6,381 nt of DNA, from IMG/VR virus record IMGVR_UViG_2693429623_000004; one strand, 5' to 3'. A model generated the notes under the pieces. That model was given only the letters and a program-made list of their open reading frames with translations, ran no database searches and was not told the DNA's origin. The stretch is from a virus (lineage: Duplodnaviria > Heunggongvirae > Uroviricota > Caudoviricetes). Position 1 is the first letter of the stretch; each line of letters begins with the position of its first letter. Shown in pieces: positions 1 to 6,381 of the stretch. Made by a program: the position numbers and the translations under genes.

Positions 1-19
1 AAACCTCGGTTTACAGGAA
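1..19 (+). other. Serine DNA-invertase crossover site (gix/cix/pix/mix type), left half cut by window edge
   Basis: Bases 1-19 read AAACC-TC-GGTTTACAGGAA: partial left half-site, 2-bp core TC, full right half-site. The reverse complement TTCCTGTAAACCGAGGTTT matches the Mu gix 26-bp site as I recall it (from memory, not searched). It lies in frame with the fibre ORF (NLGLQETVN). Confidence 0.75.
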
Positions 20-1030
20 ACGGTAAACAAGGCTGGTAACGCCGTGCAAAAAAATGGCGATACGTTGTCCGGTGGACTTACTTTTGAAAACGACTCAATC
101 CTTGCCTGGATTCGAAATACTGACTGGGCAAAGATTGGGTTTAAAAATAATTCGGATGCAGACACCGATTCCTACATGTGGTTTGAAACAGGCAACAACG
201 GCAATGAATATTTCAAATGGAGACACCGCATCATTGGCACCCGGCCTAAAGACCTGATGAATCTTAAATGGAATGCTTTGTCTGTTCTTGTTGAAGCCCT
301 TTTCAGCAGTGAAGTGAAAATATCGACAGTCAATGCACTGAGGATATTTAATTCATCTTTTGGTGCCATTTTTCGTCGTTCTGAAGAATGCCTGCATATC
401 ATCCCTACACGAGAGAATGAAGGGGAAAATGGTAATATAGGGCCACTACGCCCCTTTACGCTTAATCTCAGAACTGGCCGGATAAGCATGGGGCATGGTC
501 TTGATGTTACAGGGGATATATTTGCAAACCGTTTTGCAATTAACAGTAGTACCGGCATGTGGATTCATATGCGTGACCAGAATGTTATTTTGGGACGTAA
601 TGCGGTATCCACTGATGGTGCTCAGGCTTTGCTCCGTCAGGACCATGCCGACCGCAAATTTATGATTGGCGGTCTGGGAAATAAGCAATTTGGCATCTAC
701 ATGATTAATAACTCAAGGACAGCCAATGGCACCGATGGTCAGGCGTACATGGATAATAACGGGAACTGGCTTTGCGGCTCGCAAGTTATTCCCGGCAACT
801 ATGGCAATTTTGATTCCAGATATGTGAAAGATGTTCGACTTGGTTCACAGCAATATTATGGAGTGAACAACTGGCAAACATGGAATTTTCAGTGCCCGTC
901 AGGCTATGTACTGACGGGGATTAACGTACAGGATACCGGAAAAAACTCTGCCGATAATATTGCAGGCGTTCATTACAGGCCAGTGCAAAAGTATATAAAT
1001 GGCACTTGGTATAATGTGGCGAGTATTTAA
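2..1030 (+). CDS. Tail-fibre protein, variable C-terminal region (cassette A); 5' partial, constant part upstream of window
   Basis: Frame is open from base 2 through the crossover site ([25 protein letters not shown]...); the ORF track starts it at 44, which is a GTG. Stop TAA at 1028-1030. The C-terminus ...GYVLTGIN...[13 protein letters not shown] recurs as a motif in the other cassettes and is followed directly by a tfa gene, the typical fibre-chaperone arrangement. Confidence 0.85.
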
Positions 1031-1031
1031 T

Positions 1032-1559
1032 ATGATGCACTTAAAGAACATAAAAGCAGGTAATGCTAAAACAGTGGAGCAGTATGAGTTAACAAAGAAG
1101 CACGGAGTCATCTGGCTTTACTCTGAGGACGGAAAAAACTGGTATGAGGAAGTGAAGAACTTTCAGCCAGACACAATAAAGATTGTTTACGATGCAAATA
1201 ATATTATTGTCGCCATCACCAAAGATGCCTCCACGCTTAACCCTGAAGGTTATAGCGTCGTTGAGGTTCCTGATATTACAGCTAATCGTCGTGCTGATGA
1301 TTCCGGTAAGTGGATGTTTAAGGACGGAGCTGTGGTTAAACGGATTTATACGGCTGACGAACAGCAACAACAGGCCGAATCACAAAAGGCCGCATTGCTT
1401 TCCGAAGCTGAATCAGTCATCCAGCCGCTGGAACGCGCTGTCAGGCTGAATATGGCGACGGACGAGGAACGCACACGACTGGAAGCATGGGAACGCTACA
1501 GTGTTCTGGTCAGCCGTGTGGATACGGCAAAGCCAGAATGGCCACAAAAGCCTGAGTAA
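1032..1559 (+). CDS. tfa: Tail-fibre assembly chaperone (Tfa family, lambda Tfa / Mu U / e14 TfaE-like), copy 1
   Basis: ATG at 1032 sits 1 nt after the fibre stop (TAATATGATG). The product [11 protein letters not shown]...EWPQKPE is about 175 aa and paralogous to three other ORFs in the window. The ORF-track start at 999 is an upstream in-frame extension that overlaps the fibre. Confidence 0.9.
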
Positions 1560-1575
1560 AAATTAAGGCCCGATA
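1364..1575. repeat. Direct repeat, copy 1 (3' end of tfa1 plus tail through half of the terminator hairpin)
   Basis: Matches 2389-2600 at offset 1025 with only a handful of mismatches by eye (e.g. ggcaaagccagaatgg vs ggcaaatcctgaatgg). Confidence 0.85.
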
Positions 1576-2055
1576 NATCTTTATAAAGATATTGAATCTA
1601 ATGGCAGCAATTTTAGATTAAAAAGTAATTACCGCCACCACATTACATTCGCCAACGAAGACGGAAGAATTCGTATGTTTTTGTGGAAAGATAACGGTGG
1701 TGATGGTGTTCATATTAATAACGGTTCAGATGGTGGTGGTGATTTCATTTTTAAAACAGATGGGGGATTTGCGCTGGGAAGTGGTGCGCAAGTTGCGTCT
1801 AGTGGCGATATTTATGGTTCAGTGTGGGAAAACAACTGGTTAAGCACATGGCTGCATAATCATGTCGTTCGGGATATTCGTCTTGGCAGCATTGAATATA
1901 AAAACGTATGGCGCGACTACGGCTTTGGCGATGCGTCAGGTTATGTTTTAACAGCCGCAATTAACAGCAATGCGGATGATATTGTCGACACTGTTGCCAG
2001 AAGGCCAATTCAGAAATTGATTGGGGGAATATGGTACAACGTGGGGAGTGTTTAA
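1567..2055 (+). CDS. Tail-fibre C-terminal cassette B, 5'-truncated and without a crossover site; possibly silent
   Basis: Frame is open from 1567, immediately after an in-frame TAA at 1564-1566, and reads [45 protein letters not shown]...[38 protein letters not shown]. First in-frame ATG is at 1675 (the ORF-track start). Stop TAA at 2053-2055. No AAACC-NN-GGTTT site lies upstream. Confidence 0.7.
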
Positions 2056-2056
2056 G

Positions 2057-2584
2057 ATGATGCACCTGAAAAATATTAAGGCCGGGAATCCGAAAACACC
2101 GGAACAATACCAGCTAACTAAAAAAGCGGGCGTGGTATGGCTCTTTTGCGAAGATGGCAAAAACTGGTATGAGGAACAAAAGAATTTTCAGCCAGACACC
2201 ATAAAAATTGCTTACGATGAGAACAACATCATCGTTGCTGTCAGTAAAGACGTTTCAACTATTAATCCTGAAGGGCTAAGCATAGTTGAAGTTCCTGATA
2301 TTACGGCAAATCGTCACGCAGACAATAACGGAAAATGGATGTTTCTGGATGGTAAAGTAGTAAAGAGGGAATATACAGAACAGGAACTGCAACAACAGGC
2401 CGAATCACAAAAGGCCGCATTGCTTTCCGAAGCTGAATCAGTCATCCAGCCGCTGGAACGCGCTGTCAGGCTGAATATGGCGACGGACGAGGAACGCACA
2501 CGACTGGAAGCATGGGAACGCTACAGTGTTCTGGTCAGCCGTGTGGATACGGCAAATCCTGAATGGCCACAAAAGCCTGAATAA
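2057..2584 (+). CDS. tfa: Tail-fibre assembly chaperone (Tfa family), copy 2
   Basis: ATGATG at 2057 follows the cassette B stop by 1 nt. Product [23 protein letters not shown]...EWPQKPE. The ORF-track start at 2021 is an upstream extension. Confidence 0.9.
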
Positions 2585-2600
2585 AAATTAAGGCCCGATA
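2389..2600. repeat. Direct repeat, copy 2 (3' end of tfa2 plus tail)
   Basis: Near-identical to 1364-1575. Confidence 0.85.
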
Positions 2601-2609
2601 GCGGGCCTT
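2590..2609. terminator. Palindromic hairpin between convergent tfa2 and tfa3; likely intrinsic terminator
   Basis: AAGGCCCG-ATAG-CGGGCCTT is an 8-bp GC-rich stem with a 4-nt loop. On the - strand it is followed by AATTTTTAT. The A-run before it on the + strand gives a U-tract for transcripts reading in the - direction. Confidence 0.7.
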
Positions 2610-2960
2610 CTCTCATTCTGGTTGTTCGGGAAACGTTACTGGCAGGCTGGAGGTGTCTGTGGATTCAACCTTCTGCGCATAGAGCATCCACTCGGTTAAT
2701 TTTTGTTTATTCTCATCGGAAATGATGCCCAGCTGTAGCTGAGAGTCCCACAGCTGGGTTTTATCCCTGACGAGCTGCAGCAGGCTCTGCTTTTCATTTT
2801 CCGCTTGTTGCCTTTGCTCTTCCTCGGTATAAGTTCGCTTTATCACCGCACCATCTTTGAACATCCAGTTGCCCGAAATATCAGCCCGGCGATTTGCTGT
2901 AATATCAGGCAACTCAACGACACTTAAACCTTCTGGATTAATTGCTGATACATCCTTGTC
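2590..2960. repeat. Direct repeat, copy 1 (hairpin plus 3' part of tfa3)
   Basis: Matches 3580-3950 at constant offset 990 with scattered point mismatches by eye; similarity drops toward the 5' halves of the genes. Confidence 0.8.
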
Positions 2961-3146
2961 TATAGCAATAATTATTCCCTCAACTGTGTAAGCCAGTTTT
3001 ATTGTATCCTCCTGAAAGTTTTTTAATTCCTCATGCCAATTTTTTCCATCTTCGGACCATAACCAGATAACATCAAAATTCTTTGTTAGCTGGTATTGTT
3101 CAACGGTTTTTGGATTACCTGCGACAATGTTTTTTAAATGCTGCAT
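2613..3146 (-). CDS. tfa: Tail-fibre assembly chaperone (Tfa family), copy 3
   Basis: Product [30 protein letters not shown]...[11 protein letters not shown]. The N-terminal part is conserved with copies 1 and 2; the C-terminal part belongs to the second class shared with copy 4. ATG at 3146 sits 2 nt after the stop of fibre fragment C. Confidence 0.9.
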
Positions 3147-3148
3147 GA

Positions 3149-3568
3149 TTATACCTGCGATACGTTATACCATGTTCCGTTAATTAACTTTTGTATTGGT
3201 CTGAATACTGCCGGATCATCACCATCGACTTCACCGATAATACCAAGCCCCGTGATTACATGGCCTGATTTTTCATACATCACGCCTTTCTTCATGGTCT
3301 AAACAACTCGTGTGCCAAGTCTGACATCTCTCACATAGCGGGAATCAAAGTTACCGTAATCCGAGGGATTAACACGTCCCGTAATATTTATGGTTTTATT
3401 ACTTTGAATGCTTCCGGAGACAAAGCGCATAACATGGACGTTATTAGCATAAACATCCAGATTACCATCGCCTTTTTGTTTAAAGCCCGTGTCATTATCA
3501 CCCAATACAATCGAATTACCGCCAAGAGCACTGGATGTTCCGATACCCAGTGCACCAACATCTCCTGC
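3149..3568 (-). pseudogene. Tail-fibre C-terminal cassette C: 5'-truncated, no crossover site, interrupted by an in-frame TAG
   Basis: The - strand reads [89 protein letters not shown], then TAG (3299-3301), then in the same frame [49 protein letters not shown] and TAA (3149-3151). Region 3362-3568 duplicates 5176-5415 of cassette E apart from a 33-bp deletion. The 5' end runs into the N-run at 3569-3579. Confidence 0.7.
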
Positions 3569-3579
3569 NNNNNNNNNNN

Positions 3580-3599
3580 AAGGCCCGATATCGGGCCTT
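3580..3599. terminator. Second copy of the palindromic hairpin, downstream of tfa4 on the - strand
   Basis: AAGGCCCG-ATAT-CGGGCCTT. It is the same stem as 2590-2609 and is flanked on one side by the 11-nt N-run. Confidence 0.6.
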
Positions 3600-3950
3600 G
3601 TTTCATTCTGGTTGTTCGGGAAACGTTACTGGCAGGCTGGAGGTGTCTGTGGATTCGACCTTCTGCGCATAGAGCATCCACTCGGTTAATTTTTGTTTAT
3701 TCTCGTCGGAAATAATGCCCAGCCGTAGCTGTGAGTCCCATAGCTGGGTTTTATCCCTGACGAGCTGTAGCAGGCTTTGCTTTTCATTTTCCGCTTGTTG
3801 CCTCTGCTCTTCCCCGGTATAAGTTCGCTTTATCACTACGCCATCTTTGAACATCCATTTACCTGAAATATCAGCCCGGCGATTTGCTGTAATATCAGGA
3901 ACCTCAACGACGCTTGCGCCTTCCGGATTAATTGCTGAAACATCCTTTTC
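3580..3950. repeat. Direct repeat, copy 2 (hairpin plus 3' part of tfa4)
   Basis: Partner of 2590-2960. Confidence 0.8.
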
Positions 3951-4136
3951 AATACAAATAATAACGCCGTTGTGGTCATAGACCATTTTCAACGTATCAG
4001 GCTGAAAGTTCTTTTGTTCCTCATACCAGTTTTTCCCATCCTCTGTATAAAGCCATTTGATGTTAAATTGTTTCGTTAGCTGGTATTGCTCTTTTGTTTC
4101 AGGATTACCAGCAGAAATGTTTTTTAAGTGCATCAT
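3603..4136 (-). CDS. tfa: Tail-fibre assembly chaperone (Tfa family), copy 4
   Basis: Product [40 protein letters not shown]...[17 protein letters not shown] at 4136 sits 2 nt after the cassette D stop (TAA 4139-4141). Confidence 0.9.
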   Translation of the reverse strand: MMHLKNISAGNPETKEQYQLTKQFNIKWLYTEDGKNWYEEQKNFQPDTLKMVYDHNGVIICIEKDVSAINPEGASVVEVPDITANRRADISGKWMFKDGVVIKRTYTGEEQRQQAENEKQSLLQLVRDKTQLWDSQLRLGIISDENKQKLTEWMLYAQKVESTDTSSLPVTFPEQPE

Positions 4137-4138
4137 CG

Positions 4139-5090
4139 TTAAATACTCCCCGCGTTATACCACGTCCCATTAATGCAATACTGAATTGGCCTTGCCTGAG
4201 TTGTATCAATTAGTTCATCTCTGTTTGAGTTAACGGAACCGGTAACAACATAACCTGACCTGTCAGACCATCCGGGACCATTCCATGTCTGAACAGATAA
4301 CAGACCACCAAGGCGAATACCTGTAATAAACCTTGAGTTACATTCTGCCTGCGTATATGCACCAACATCTCCCGCAGAGGGTTTGCGGGTTGTGGTGTAA
4401 AACTCTGACCAGTCAGCTTCAAAGCCATAACCATCACGCGCTGAACGATAAAAAATACCGCCGTTCCTGTAATTCACGCGGAACTGTACAGCAGGGCAGC
4501 TCCCCGTATTCATATTGAAGTGGAGGATTAATGTCGATGCGCCACCAATGTTTGCGTTATAGACCCCGCTATTCCAGTTCCAGCCAACAGCTTTATCATT
4601 TCCGACAGTGCTTCCTGTTTGCCCTAAAGCAAATGCAGGTTGTTGATTTTTCGTGTTGTAGTCTCGTCGCCAGCCAGGAGCGTAAGCATCACCATGATTA
4701 ATATAAGTGAATTGAGCGTTAGTAATTCCGCCACCGCTGGACGTGCTCGGCGTGGTAACGCGTATGGTCATTGCGCCGCGAGTGCCAATAACTTCCACCA
4801 CAGCACCTGCAAGACAAATATTTCCGCAACCTGTATCTGTAATGACCTTATTATTTGCATAAGCCCATGAGCCTTTGCACATCCAGTAAGGATGGTTAAA
4901 TGCTCCCTGACTCTCCAGCCACGAAATAAATTGCGCGGTTGTCCAGACCTGACTATCGCCACCAATATTCAGCCATGAGCTATATGCGCGGCAGGCACCA
5001 ATATTTTTGGTGAAGGTATCTTTCCCCGGAATATCTGCGCCGTTCTGGTTTTTCTGTAATGCGCCAGAAGCCTGATTTACCGTTTCCTGT
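4139..5090 (-). CDS. Tail-fibre variable C-terminal region (cassette D), alternative to cassette A; 5' end runs into crossover site and N-run
   Basis: The ORF-track entry 4139..4882 stays open upstream to 5090 in the same frame: ...QETVNQASGALQKNQNGADIPGKDTFTKNIGACRAYSSWLNIGGDSQVWTTAQFISWLESQGAFNHPYWMCKGSWAYANN... It begins with the same QETVN encoded by site 1 and ends ...GYVVTGSVNSNRDELIDTTQARPIQYCINGTWYNAGSI. Confidence 0.85.
4357..4640. repeat. Diverged direct repeat, copy 1 (shared fibre module in cassette D)
   Basis: Aligns with about 5397-5680 in cassette E at roughly 80-85% identity by eye. It encodes AFALGxTGSTVxNDKAVGWNW...GSCPAxQFRxNYxNGGIFYRSARDGYGFEADWSEFYTT..RKPSAGDVGA. Confidence 0.7.
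5084..5090 (-). other. Crossover site, visible edge only (TTCCTGT...), remainder masked by N-run 5091-5175
   Basis: Bases 5071-5090 (CCTGATTTACCGTTTCCTGT) match the reverse complement of window bases 11-32 apart from a few substitutions; the remainder AAACC-GA-GGTTT... is predicted inside the Ns. Orientation is inverted relative to site 1. Confidence 0.65.
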
Positions 5091-5175
5091 NNNNNNNNNN
5101 NNNNNNNNNNNNNNNNNNNNNNNNNNNNNNNNNNNNNNNNNNNNNNNNNNNNNNNNNNNNNNNNNNNNNNNNNNN

Positions 5176-5888
5176 CGAGGGATTAACACGTCCCGTAATA
5201 TTTATGGTTTTATTACTTTGAATGCTTCCGGAGACAAAGCGCATAACATGGACGTTATTAGCATAAACATCCAGATTACCATCGCCTTTTTGTTTAAAGC
5301 CCGTGTCATTATCACCCAATACAATCGAATTACCGCCAAGAGCACTGGATGTTCCGATACCCAGTGCACCATTCAGTTGACCACCAGATAACGGCAGTGC
5401 ACCAACATCTCCTGCTGAAGGTTTTCTGGTGGTGTAAAATTCGGACCAGTCGGCTTCAAAACCATAACCATCACGGGCTGAACGATAAAAAATACCGCCA
5501 TTTTTATAATTAATCCGAAACTGAGCTGCAGGACAACTTCCTTCTCCCATATAAAAATGAATAATTAACGTTGATGCACCACTAATAGTTGCGTTATAGG
5601 CTCCGCTACTCCAGTTCCATCCAACTGCTTTATCATTCGCAACGGTGCTTCCTGTTTTCCCTAAGGCAAACGCACCAACATGACTTGCTTTTAATGTGAT
5701 ATCGGAGGAACCATCAAAAGCCACATTGCTTATTTTCCTGGCAGTTTTTAATTTTGCAGCTGTAGAAGCATTGCCGGATAGTTCACCAGAAAGGCCACCG
5801 CTGAATGTTTGTCGATTAGTCCAGGTATTCGCTGTACTGAGTAACGGTATTTTCTCCCCGCTTGTGCCGAGTTCTCGTAAACCGAGGT
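5176..5888 (-). CDS. Tail-fibre variable region (cassette E), third alternative; both ends in N-runs
   Basis: The - strand reads LGLRELGTSGEKIPLLSTANTWTNRQTFSGG...AFALGKTGSTVANDKAVGWNW...GYGFEADWSEFYTTRKPSAGDVGALPLSGGQLNGALGIGTSS...NKTINITGRVNPS. The 5' LGL is encoded by the crossover site at 5872-5888. The central block is shared with cassette D. Confidence 0.8.
5397..5680. repeat. Diverged direct repeat, copy 2 (shared fibre module in cassette E)
   Basis: Partner of 4357-4640. Confidence 0.7.
5872..5888 (-). other. Crossover site: TTCTCGTAAACC-GA-GGT then Ns
   Basis: A full left half-site TTCTCGTAAACC, core GA and the start of the right half-site are visible before the N-run. Orientation is the same as the 5084 site and inverted relative to site 1. 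It lies in frame with cassette E. Confidence 0.7.
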
Positions 5889-6300
5889 NNNNNNNNNNNN
5901 NNNNNNNNNNNNNNNNNNNNNNNNNNNNNNNNNNNNNNNNNNNNNNNNNNNNNNNNNNNNNNNNNNNNNNNNNNNNNNNNNNNNNNNNNNNNNNNNNNNN
6001 NNNNNNNNNNNNNNNNNNNNNNNNNNNNNNNNNNNNNNNNNNNNNNNNNNNNNNNNNNNNNNNNNNNNNNNNNNNNNNNNNNNNNNNNNNNNNNNNNNNN
6101 NNNNNNNNNNNNNNNNNNNNNNNNNNNNNNNNNNNNNNNNNNNNNNNNNNNNNNNNNNNNNNNNNNNNNNNNNNNNNNNNNNNNNNNNNNNNNNNNNNNN
6201 NNNNNNNNNNNNNNNNNNNNNNNNNNNNNNNNNNNNNNNNNNNNNNNNNNNNNNNNNNNNNNNNNNNNNNNNNNNNNNNNNNNNNNNNNNNNNNNNNNNN

Positions 6301-6381
6301 GTCACTGTATGCGGCATCTTGTCGTGCTGGTGGTGGAAGCCTAGAAAAAGTATCGGGTGTTGCTGAACCGTGTTGATACAT
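6301..6381 (-). CDS. Partial ORF of unknown identity reaching the right window edge
   Basis: Only 27 codons are visible (MYQHGSATPDTFSRLPPPARQDAAYSD) before the 412-nt N-run. The ATG at the window edge may be coincidental and the frame may continue beyond the window. Its relation to the fibre cassettes cannot be decided. Confidence 0.2.

Follow-up and report, generated by a model that had tools for sequence, protein, structure and literature searches.

Cassettes D and E, two tail-fibre gene endings in a 6,381-nucleotide stretch of viral DNA (IMG/VR record IMGVR_UViG_2693429623_000004; hereafter the window, meaning the whole stretch that was analysed), share one central module and are unlike on both sides of it. 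We consider it very probable that D and E carry one and the same knob-like domain, that they belong to separate loci, and that they are mosaics generated by homologous recombination.

The open reading frames of the window encode tail-fibre C-terminal cassettes and tfa genes of the Mu G, P1 C and P2 H kind. From the list of open reading frames and their translations, cassette A (1-1030) and fragment B (1577-2055) lie on the plus strand and are followed by tfa genes at 1032-1559 and 2057-2584, respectively. On the minus strand, fragment C (3149-3568) is followed by tfa at 2613-3146 and cassette D (4139-5090) by tfa at 3603-4136, and cassette E occupies 5176-5888. Runs of N occur at 1576, 3569-3579, 5091-5175 and 5889-6300. 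One further open reading frame, beginning MYQHGSATPD at position 6381, was discarded as a wrong-frame reading of the fibre constant region.

The first-pass annotation had described a D/E block of about 280 bp, running from AFALG to GDVGA, at 80-85% identity. The block is real. It covers 4358-4636 (minus strand) in D, with 93 residues (AFALGQTG...SAGDVGA) in 279 nt, and 5398-5673 (minus strand) in E, with 92 residues (AFALGKTG...SAGDVGA) in 276 nt, one Thr codon shorter; its identity of 79-80% falls at the low edge of the range first given. Comparison of the window with itself, by self-repeat search, MAFFT alignment and blastn alike, returned one common block. The single significant blastn match pairs cassette positions 454-733 of D with 215-491 of E (79.6% over 280 columns, one gap, E = 4e-69), and the second-best match has E = 0.08. 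In frame, 221 of 279 nt are identical (79.2%, or 80.1% without the one-codon gap, an indel at TTT versus TT), corresponding to 85% amino acid identity; the codon differences comprise 31 synonymous and 13 non-synonymous changes. Identity in successive thirds is 84%, 69% and 85%, and the longest exact runs are 23, 15 and 14 nt. Over the adjoining 90 nt, D and E are 30% identical upstream and 26% downstream, and the drop to this chance level (25-30%) takes place within a few bases on either side. Divergence between the cassettes is therefore not uniform, and the module borders are sharp.

Outside the module the two cassettes are built from different parts. The D head (4637-5090, minus strand; QETVNQ...NTKNQQP) is specific to the Mu S' type and unrelated to the head of E, and the D tip (4139-4357, minus strand; YTQAECNSRF...INGTWYNAGSI) has 72 residues and leads into tfa at 3603-4136. 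Cassette D is 95.7% identical in DNA to Mu, for whose tail fibre S' (gp52) a structure is available as PDB 8JU3 (Mori et al., 2024, Virology 593:110017, as cited in PMC11821841). Residues 1-316 of D match residues 173-488 of 8ju3_A at 98% protein identity (E = 3e-218), and E matches 8JU3 over the module only. The E head (5674-5888, minus strand) runs from LGLRELGTSGEK to GNASTAAKLKTARKISNVAFDGSSDITLKASHVG, and its sequence is also found behind the P2 H constant part in two other loci (L001 and L005). The portion of E after the module (5176-5397, minus strand; LPLSGGQLNGALGIGTSS...RVNPS), which is cut by the N run at 5175, resembles the trimerisation region of gp37 (PDB 6F45; PF20744 in its continuation). 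D is a cassette of the Mu S'/P1 S' type, consisting of a specific head, the module and a 72-residue tip, and E is a cassette of the P2 H/lambda Stf type, consisting of a GNA-repeat head, the module, a gp37-like linker and a P2 H-type tip.

We asked of the module whether its borders coincide with those of a domain, and they do. Pfam PF12604 (gp37_C; curated gathering threshold 22.5 bits) passes in both cassettes, at 25.1 bits over residues 156-249 of D and 32.7 bits over residues 77-152 of E, envelopes that agree with the module limits of 152-244 and 72-163, respectively. Many homologues also carry the PF12604 label in precomputed annotation. NCBIfam gave no match for D or E, and PHROGs gave only generic 'tail fiber protein' families. 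For the whole of cassette D, AlphaFold2 (AF2) gave a poor model (mean pLDDT 51), and the only confident block in it (pLDDT above 70), residues 157-231, may partly mirror a deeper alignment over the module. Modelled alone, the module reached pLDDT 76 and pTM 0.68 and was predicted to form a five-strand beta domain at residues 7-66, with a low-confidence tail that covers the region of FYTTRKPSAGDVGA. The module is whole in 224 of 224 matching phage records, among them Mu, P1/P7, P2-like, Felix O1-like and T5-like phages, and a search of 1.84 billion representatives placed it in 223 clusters at 50% identity. It lies at varying positions within proteins and in up to four copies per protein. Given the domain match, the confident block and the occurrence in whole and multiple copies, we regard the module as a discrete, autonomous and repeatable fibre 'bead', a small, beta-rich, knob-like domain of the shaft. 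PF12604 and the knob-like domains of R-type pyocin and phage fibres are among the closest known systems.

Five fibre-ending pieces and four tfa genes in 6.4 kb, together with cores of crossover sites at 1-19, 5080-5090 and 5872-5888, give the window the look of a true multi-cassette inversion locus, such as Min of p15B or a shufflon, in which a single fibre gene could end in any of A to E and the module and linkers would aid shuffling. The first-pass annotation had likewise treated D and E as cassettes of a single locus. We think this very improbable, and already largely refuted, as the window falls apart into two separate two-cassette segments when compared with other genomes. A P2-like prophage of E. 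coli FDAARGOS_943 (L004) matches window positions 3-1575 at 99.9% and 3580-5090 at 100%; there the two pieces are contiguous, with an 11-bp overlap (AAGGCCCGATA), and constitute an ordinary 3.07-kb invertible segment, A|D, adjoining an invertase gene. Beyond D, this prophage has a crossover site and then the annotated invertase gene, not E. Window positions 1574-3557 (99.8%) and 5176-5888 (100%) are matched by four other loci (L005, L006, L009 and L011), in which these pieces are contiguous with an overlap of 196 nt. In this second locus the P2 H constant part is followed by a crossover site, the E head, the module, the linker, the 'C' tip and tfa, and the opposite half comprises tfa, B at full length and a crossover site; window positions 6301-6381 fall within that constant part, 263-343 nt upstream of E. 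No single record in the plasmid, phage and complete E. coli collections spans at least 80% of the window, the most being about two-thirds. An N run stands at every junction between the supposed cassettes, and B and C both begin mid-gene at such runs and have no crossover site.

Window positions 1-19 and 5080-5090 form an inverted repeat with a Gin/Cin/Pin-type core, the latter being half of a Gin-type site cut by the N run; its full version lies at 6066-6093 of the FDAARGOS_943 prophage. Systems of this type have two sites in inverted orientation, each about 26 bp long and containing the core AAACC(G/T)(A/C)GGTTT, at the 5' ends of oppositely oriented cassettes, and such pairs were found, complete, in L004 and L005. 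Each of the L004-type and L005-type loci has just two sites, and the window does not have what defines a multiple-inversion system, namely more than two cassettes, each with its own site, in one contiguous locus. The window itself holds no invertase gene; a 'recombinase family protein' adjoins the segment in L001, L002 and L004, as gin does in Mu. The window starts with AAACCTCGG, the invertase-side half-site, where the L004 counterpart has ATACCTCGG. Cassette A would accordingly lie in the opposite orientation to that in L004, a hint that inversion takes place.

From these piecewise matches, the window is most likely a gapped scaffold mixing contigs of two distinct invertible segments with two cassettes each, A|D and E|B, both of which appear to be ordinary Gin-type segments of P2-like prophages. 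D and E would stand side by side because a gapped short-read scaffold interleaved the contigs, the gap at 5091-5175 being the point where the two different loci join. The A|D segment, as seen in L004, shares its layout with the Mu G and P1 C segments: cassette, tfa, convergent tfa, second cassette, inverted crossover sites and invertase gene. It differs from Mu in what precedes it, which is a P2-type H constant part in this P2-like prophage in place of Mu Sc. More generally, gapped short-read scaffolds over invertible fibre regions can mix prophage contigs and so imitate a multi-cassette shufflon.

The same comparison accounts for fragment C. Positions 3362-3557 are an exact duplicate (100%) of 5176-5371 in E, and the in-frame TAG of C at 3296-3298 is the codon at which a homologous protein (P0165) also stops. 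Judged by its sequence, fragment C is the true 3' end of cassette E, a P2 H-type tip. Past the equivalent of position 3557, E has 33 more nt between two GGTGCACTG repeats that are missing from C, whose end thus has the form of a 33-nt deletion between these repeats (GALGIG junction). This C-type junction was not found in IMG/VR, in GTDB representative genomes or among 247 homologous proteins, and it was absent from 5,426 complete E. coli genomes, in which 404 records agree with its first 28 nt but not beyond. The likeliest origin of the junction is an artefact at the contig end or a rare deletion.

We next consider the string at the downstream border of the module, which the first-pass annotation had proposed as the boundary. 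The 14-mer GCACCAACATCTCC, read on the plus strand, is the complement of the GDVGA codons and lies there in both cassettes, at 4359-4372 in D and at 5399-5412 in E. It occurs exactly three times in the window, against 0.04 expected. The copy reported in fragment C is present (3552-3565) and does not count as a third instance, C being the 3' end of E; it is created only by the final, suspect 11 nt before the N run (3558-3568). All three copies belong to homologous stretches and so cannot be taken as independent events. A 10-nt version, GCACCAACAT, is repeated at the upstream border of the E module (5671-5680), coding SHVGA, and a synonymous variant, GGAGATGTCGGTGC, is used by a third lineage (35 of 81 loci). 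At the protein level, a short (D/H/N)(V/I)GA motif recurs at domain junctions across related fibres. We also considered whether the 14-mer is conserved beyond the needs of the protein and rejected the idea, since synonymous differences persist in the last third of the module and distant members of the family often have no such motif, many profile matches stopping at position 86 of 93.

To see whether parts have been exchanged, we turned to 282 homologues collected with whole-cassette searches, because the 92-residue module query by itself gave only short fragments. Classified by head and tip, H_D heads were joined to T_D tips in 116 cases, T_E in 4 and T_short in 3; H_E heads to T_D in 13, T_E in 13 and T_short in 3; and H_Stf (lambda Stf-type) heads to two tip classes, T_E in 12 and T_short in 3, counts that are not frequencies because E. 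coli, Shigella and Salmonella, and the best-scoring matches, are over-represented in the set. Examples of the combinations are P0163, P0214, P0188, P0224, P0170 and P0164. Irrespective of the tip, modules behind H_D heads share 96-99% identity with the D type and those behind H_E heads 93-98% with the E type. The module variant follows the head, and the downstream border is therefore the frequent exchange point.

Breakpoints were placed using the 132 positions that differ between D and E. Two related loci (L027 and L032) are purely E-like through head and module and D-like right after GDVGA; in a third (L030) the parent switches inside the last part of the module. In L036 the parent changes at the upstream border, and part of the module is duplicated in tandem, with the junction at DVGA|FALG, beside an IS1. 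In another locus (L037), a single cassette contains two modules. The N-terminal 100 residues encoded by the downstream tfa vary together with the tip type, whereas the C-terminal 70 do not, and in every locus scored a D-type tip goes with a D-type tfa N-terminal domain, so the exchanged unit seems to comprise the tip and half of the chaperone gene. The data thus support shuffling at the borders of the module, mainly at the downstream one, and the exchange looks like homologous recombination rather than a new mechanism. The suggestion of recombinational shuffling holds in that heads and tips recombine around the module; the exchange is not symmetrical, as the module variant travels with the head, and it is not confined to the 14-mer.

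It is very unlikely that no recombination took place, with D and E descending from one ancestral fibre in which the module is still recognisable because it is more constrained than head or tip. The excess of synonymous over non-synonymous changes in the module (31 versus 13) does point to purifying selection, as such a history would have it. However, the flanks differ in length, domain content and Pfam matches as well as falling to chance identity within a few bases, and a given head can be found joined to different tips, with 97-100% identity on both sides of the junction, which differential divergence cannot account for. Near-identical recombinants (P0214, P0188, P0224, L027, L030 and L032) refute it.

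We give equally little credence to the idea that GCACCAACATCTCC mediates tip exchange as a secondary site of site-specific recombination, for example by a Gin-family invertase. The string is identical in D and E, L027 and L032 switch parents exactly at it, and ancient stf exchanges have been ascribed to invertases (PMC3945230, a secondary source citing Sandmeier, 1994). Nevertheless, by eye the string is unlike the crossover sites (TTATCGAATACCTCGGTTTACAGGAAAC), it is in direct orientation within coding sequence and merely ends a longer conserved stretch, L030 switches upstream of it, inside the module, and the synonymous variant stands in its place in 35 of 81 loci. The 14-mer therefore has neither the likeness to a crossover site nor the confinement of breakpoints that a site-specific recombination site would show, and it does not appear to be a special site. 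Least probable of all, and refuted, is recent gene conversion between two co-resident prophage copies: both apparently reside in a single genome, with exact matches as long as 23 nt between them, but the E module is equally like D-type modules of unrelated sources (78-80% for L002, L003, which equals Mu, L004 and the window's own D), D is 100% identical to L004 and E to L005, no conversion tract is visible, and there is no sign of D-E exchange within the window's own genome.

We therefore return to homologous recombination between the fibre genes of different phages or prophages, possibly assisted by phage recombinases, as the pathway that we infer from its products, which are what is observed. 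A first crossover would fall within the module's conserved 3' third (KNGGIFYRSARDGYGFEADWSEFYTTTRKPSAGDVGA; D and E have exact runs of 23, 15 and 14 nt), and a second farther downstream, at about the middle of tfa. With two crossovers so placed, the receptor-binding tip and the N-terminal half of the chaperone would be replaced together while head and module stay, and the functional consequence would be an altered host range. Unequal exchange, leading to duplication of the module, could also be supported by the short VGA-coding strings at its two ends. In the 8JU3 trimer, residues 322-414 would form a separate domain, with TTTRKPSAGDVGA as a putative inter-domain connector. Rad52-like phage recombinases have been shown experimentally to carry out relaxed homologous recombination between lambda and defective prophages, yielding stf-tfa recombinants (PMC3945230), which makes a recombinase-assisted pathway plausible.

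A more speculative extension, which we think unlikely, is that the VGA-coding strings ATGTTGGTGC and GGAGATGTTGGTGCA at the module ends are selected at the nucleotide level as micro-homology 'splice points'. The switches of L027 and L032 exactly at the junction and the DVGA|FALG duplication junction of L036 are consistent with such points, and the GGTGCACTG-flanked deletion at the end of fragment C also points in this direction. If this were true, co-resident prophages could duplicate, delete or swap fibre domains in frame, and the VGA motif would serve the evolution of host range as a built-in signal for recombination, beyond its role as a structural linker.

Short conserved motifs, known as 'His boxes', are reportedly used by T-even phages to swap and duplicate adhesin domains, as described in 1996 and 1998 by Tetart and colleagues. 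The likeness is that short conserved strings at domain borders are found at swap points and at the junction of a tandem duplication (L036). The cassettes described here are not members of that system: their motif is (D/H/N)(V/I)GA, not GXHXH, and both the phages and the domain are others. The mosaic fibre genes P2 H, P1 S, Mu S, lambda Stf and p15B Min (Haggard-Ljungquist et al., 1992; Sandmeier et al., 1992; Sandmeier, 1994; as cited in PMC3945230) also have discrete blocks of similarity common to the fibres of unrelated phages, for which the accepted explanation is that C-terminal parts are exchanged together with assembly genes, and the window adds one example with no essential difference.

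The observation is thus real and ordinary, an instance of a phenomenon already known since the early 1990s. Because the principle has been known for that long and the structure of the D-type fibre is solved, it opens no new question. What it offers is a clean and well-delimited case of enterobacterial phage fibres being assembled from exchangeable parts: head, knob module, tip and chaperone. P2 has reportedly been retargeted by engineered fusions at fibre homology regions (PMC9594776). Since all head-by-tip combinations of the D and E types exist, the GDVGA junction is naturally tolerated as a fusion point, and it may serve the design of chimeric fibres for host-range engineering.

The window is made up of interleaved contigs contributed by the invertible segments of two P2-like prophages, one pairing fibre cassettes A and D, as in the prophage locus L004, and the other pairing E/C with B, as in the locus L005. 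Its runs of N (1576, 3569-3579, 5091-5175 and 5889-6300) are scaffold gaps. At the far end, an open reading frame start (MYQHGSATPD; 6301-6381, minus strand) is only apparent, being read in the wrong frame. This stretch is the repeat-rich constant part of the P2-type fibre gene H, and because it sits 263-343 nt upstream of E in that gene, the 412-N gap is over-estimated.

At its other end (1-19), the window starts with AAACCTCGGTTTACAGG, the invertase-side half of a crossover site joined to A, whereas the corresponding place in L004 (2996-3020) holds the H-side half-site, ATACCTCGG. These differing half-sites suggest that in the sequenced strain the segment carrying A and D is either inverted relative to L004, with D expressed, or present in both orientations.

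The four tail-fibre assembly (tfa) genes (1032-1559, 2057-2584, 2613-3146 and 3603-4136) are themselves mosaic. Their C-terminal ~70 residues fall into two types, one identical between 1380-1559 and 2405-2584, and the other shared by 2613-2889 and 3603-3879 at 94% identity. The N-terminal ~100 residues are about 70% alike among the four genes and, across about 60 related loci, co-vary with the type of fibre tip. Between convergent tfa genes lies a GC-rich hairpin, AAGGCCCGATA(G/T)CGGGCCTT, found at 2590-2609 and 3580-3599 with a truncated copy at 1565-1575; it is probably a bidirectional terminator. The first 11 nt of this hairpin constitute the overlap between the A-side and D-side contigs in L004.

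The tip shared by E and fragment C carries an in-frame TAG (3296-3298, minus strand; RLGTRVV*TMKKG) where homologues have glutamine. The same stop codon is present in L005 and terminates a Shigella sonnei protein, P0165. Lacking the final 49 residues of its tip, the E/C cassette is probably non-functional. The H gene that precedes cassette E in L005 (420-1814), the closest relative, is frameshifted and contains an N, which together with the TAG suggests a prophage in decay. Fragment C also lacks 33 nt (LPLSGGQLNGA) that E carries between two GGTGCACTG direct repeats (3558-3568 versus 5372-5415). The resulting junction was not found in IMG/VR, the GTDB representative genomes, 5,426 complete E. 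coli genomes or 247 homologous proteins; it would stem either from an artefact of gap closure or from a rare deletion by slippage.

In the homologous locus L036 (427-2025), the PF12604 module common to D and E is partly duplicated in tandem, with DVGA abutting FALG at the joint, and an IS1 element interrupts the fibre gene immediately upstream of the duplication. The long fibres P0283 (1186 residues) and L037 2255-3640 contain the module two to four times, its copies alternating with GNAxTAxKLKTAR...FDGxSDI repeats, so that repeat and module together form a reiterated unit. The Salmonella enterica protein P0273 (445 residues), annotated as a 'recombinase family protein', is an in-frame fusion of the first ~180 residues of a serine invertase to a complete fibre cassette, with ...IYDVGL meeting GETIN at the joint; this suggests that, in that lineage, the 3' end of the invertase gene holds a crossover site. 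In the window itself, it is the interleaving of contigs that imitates a five-cassette shufflon.
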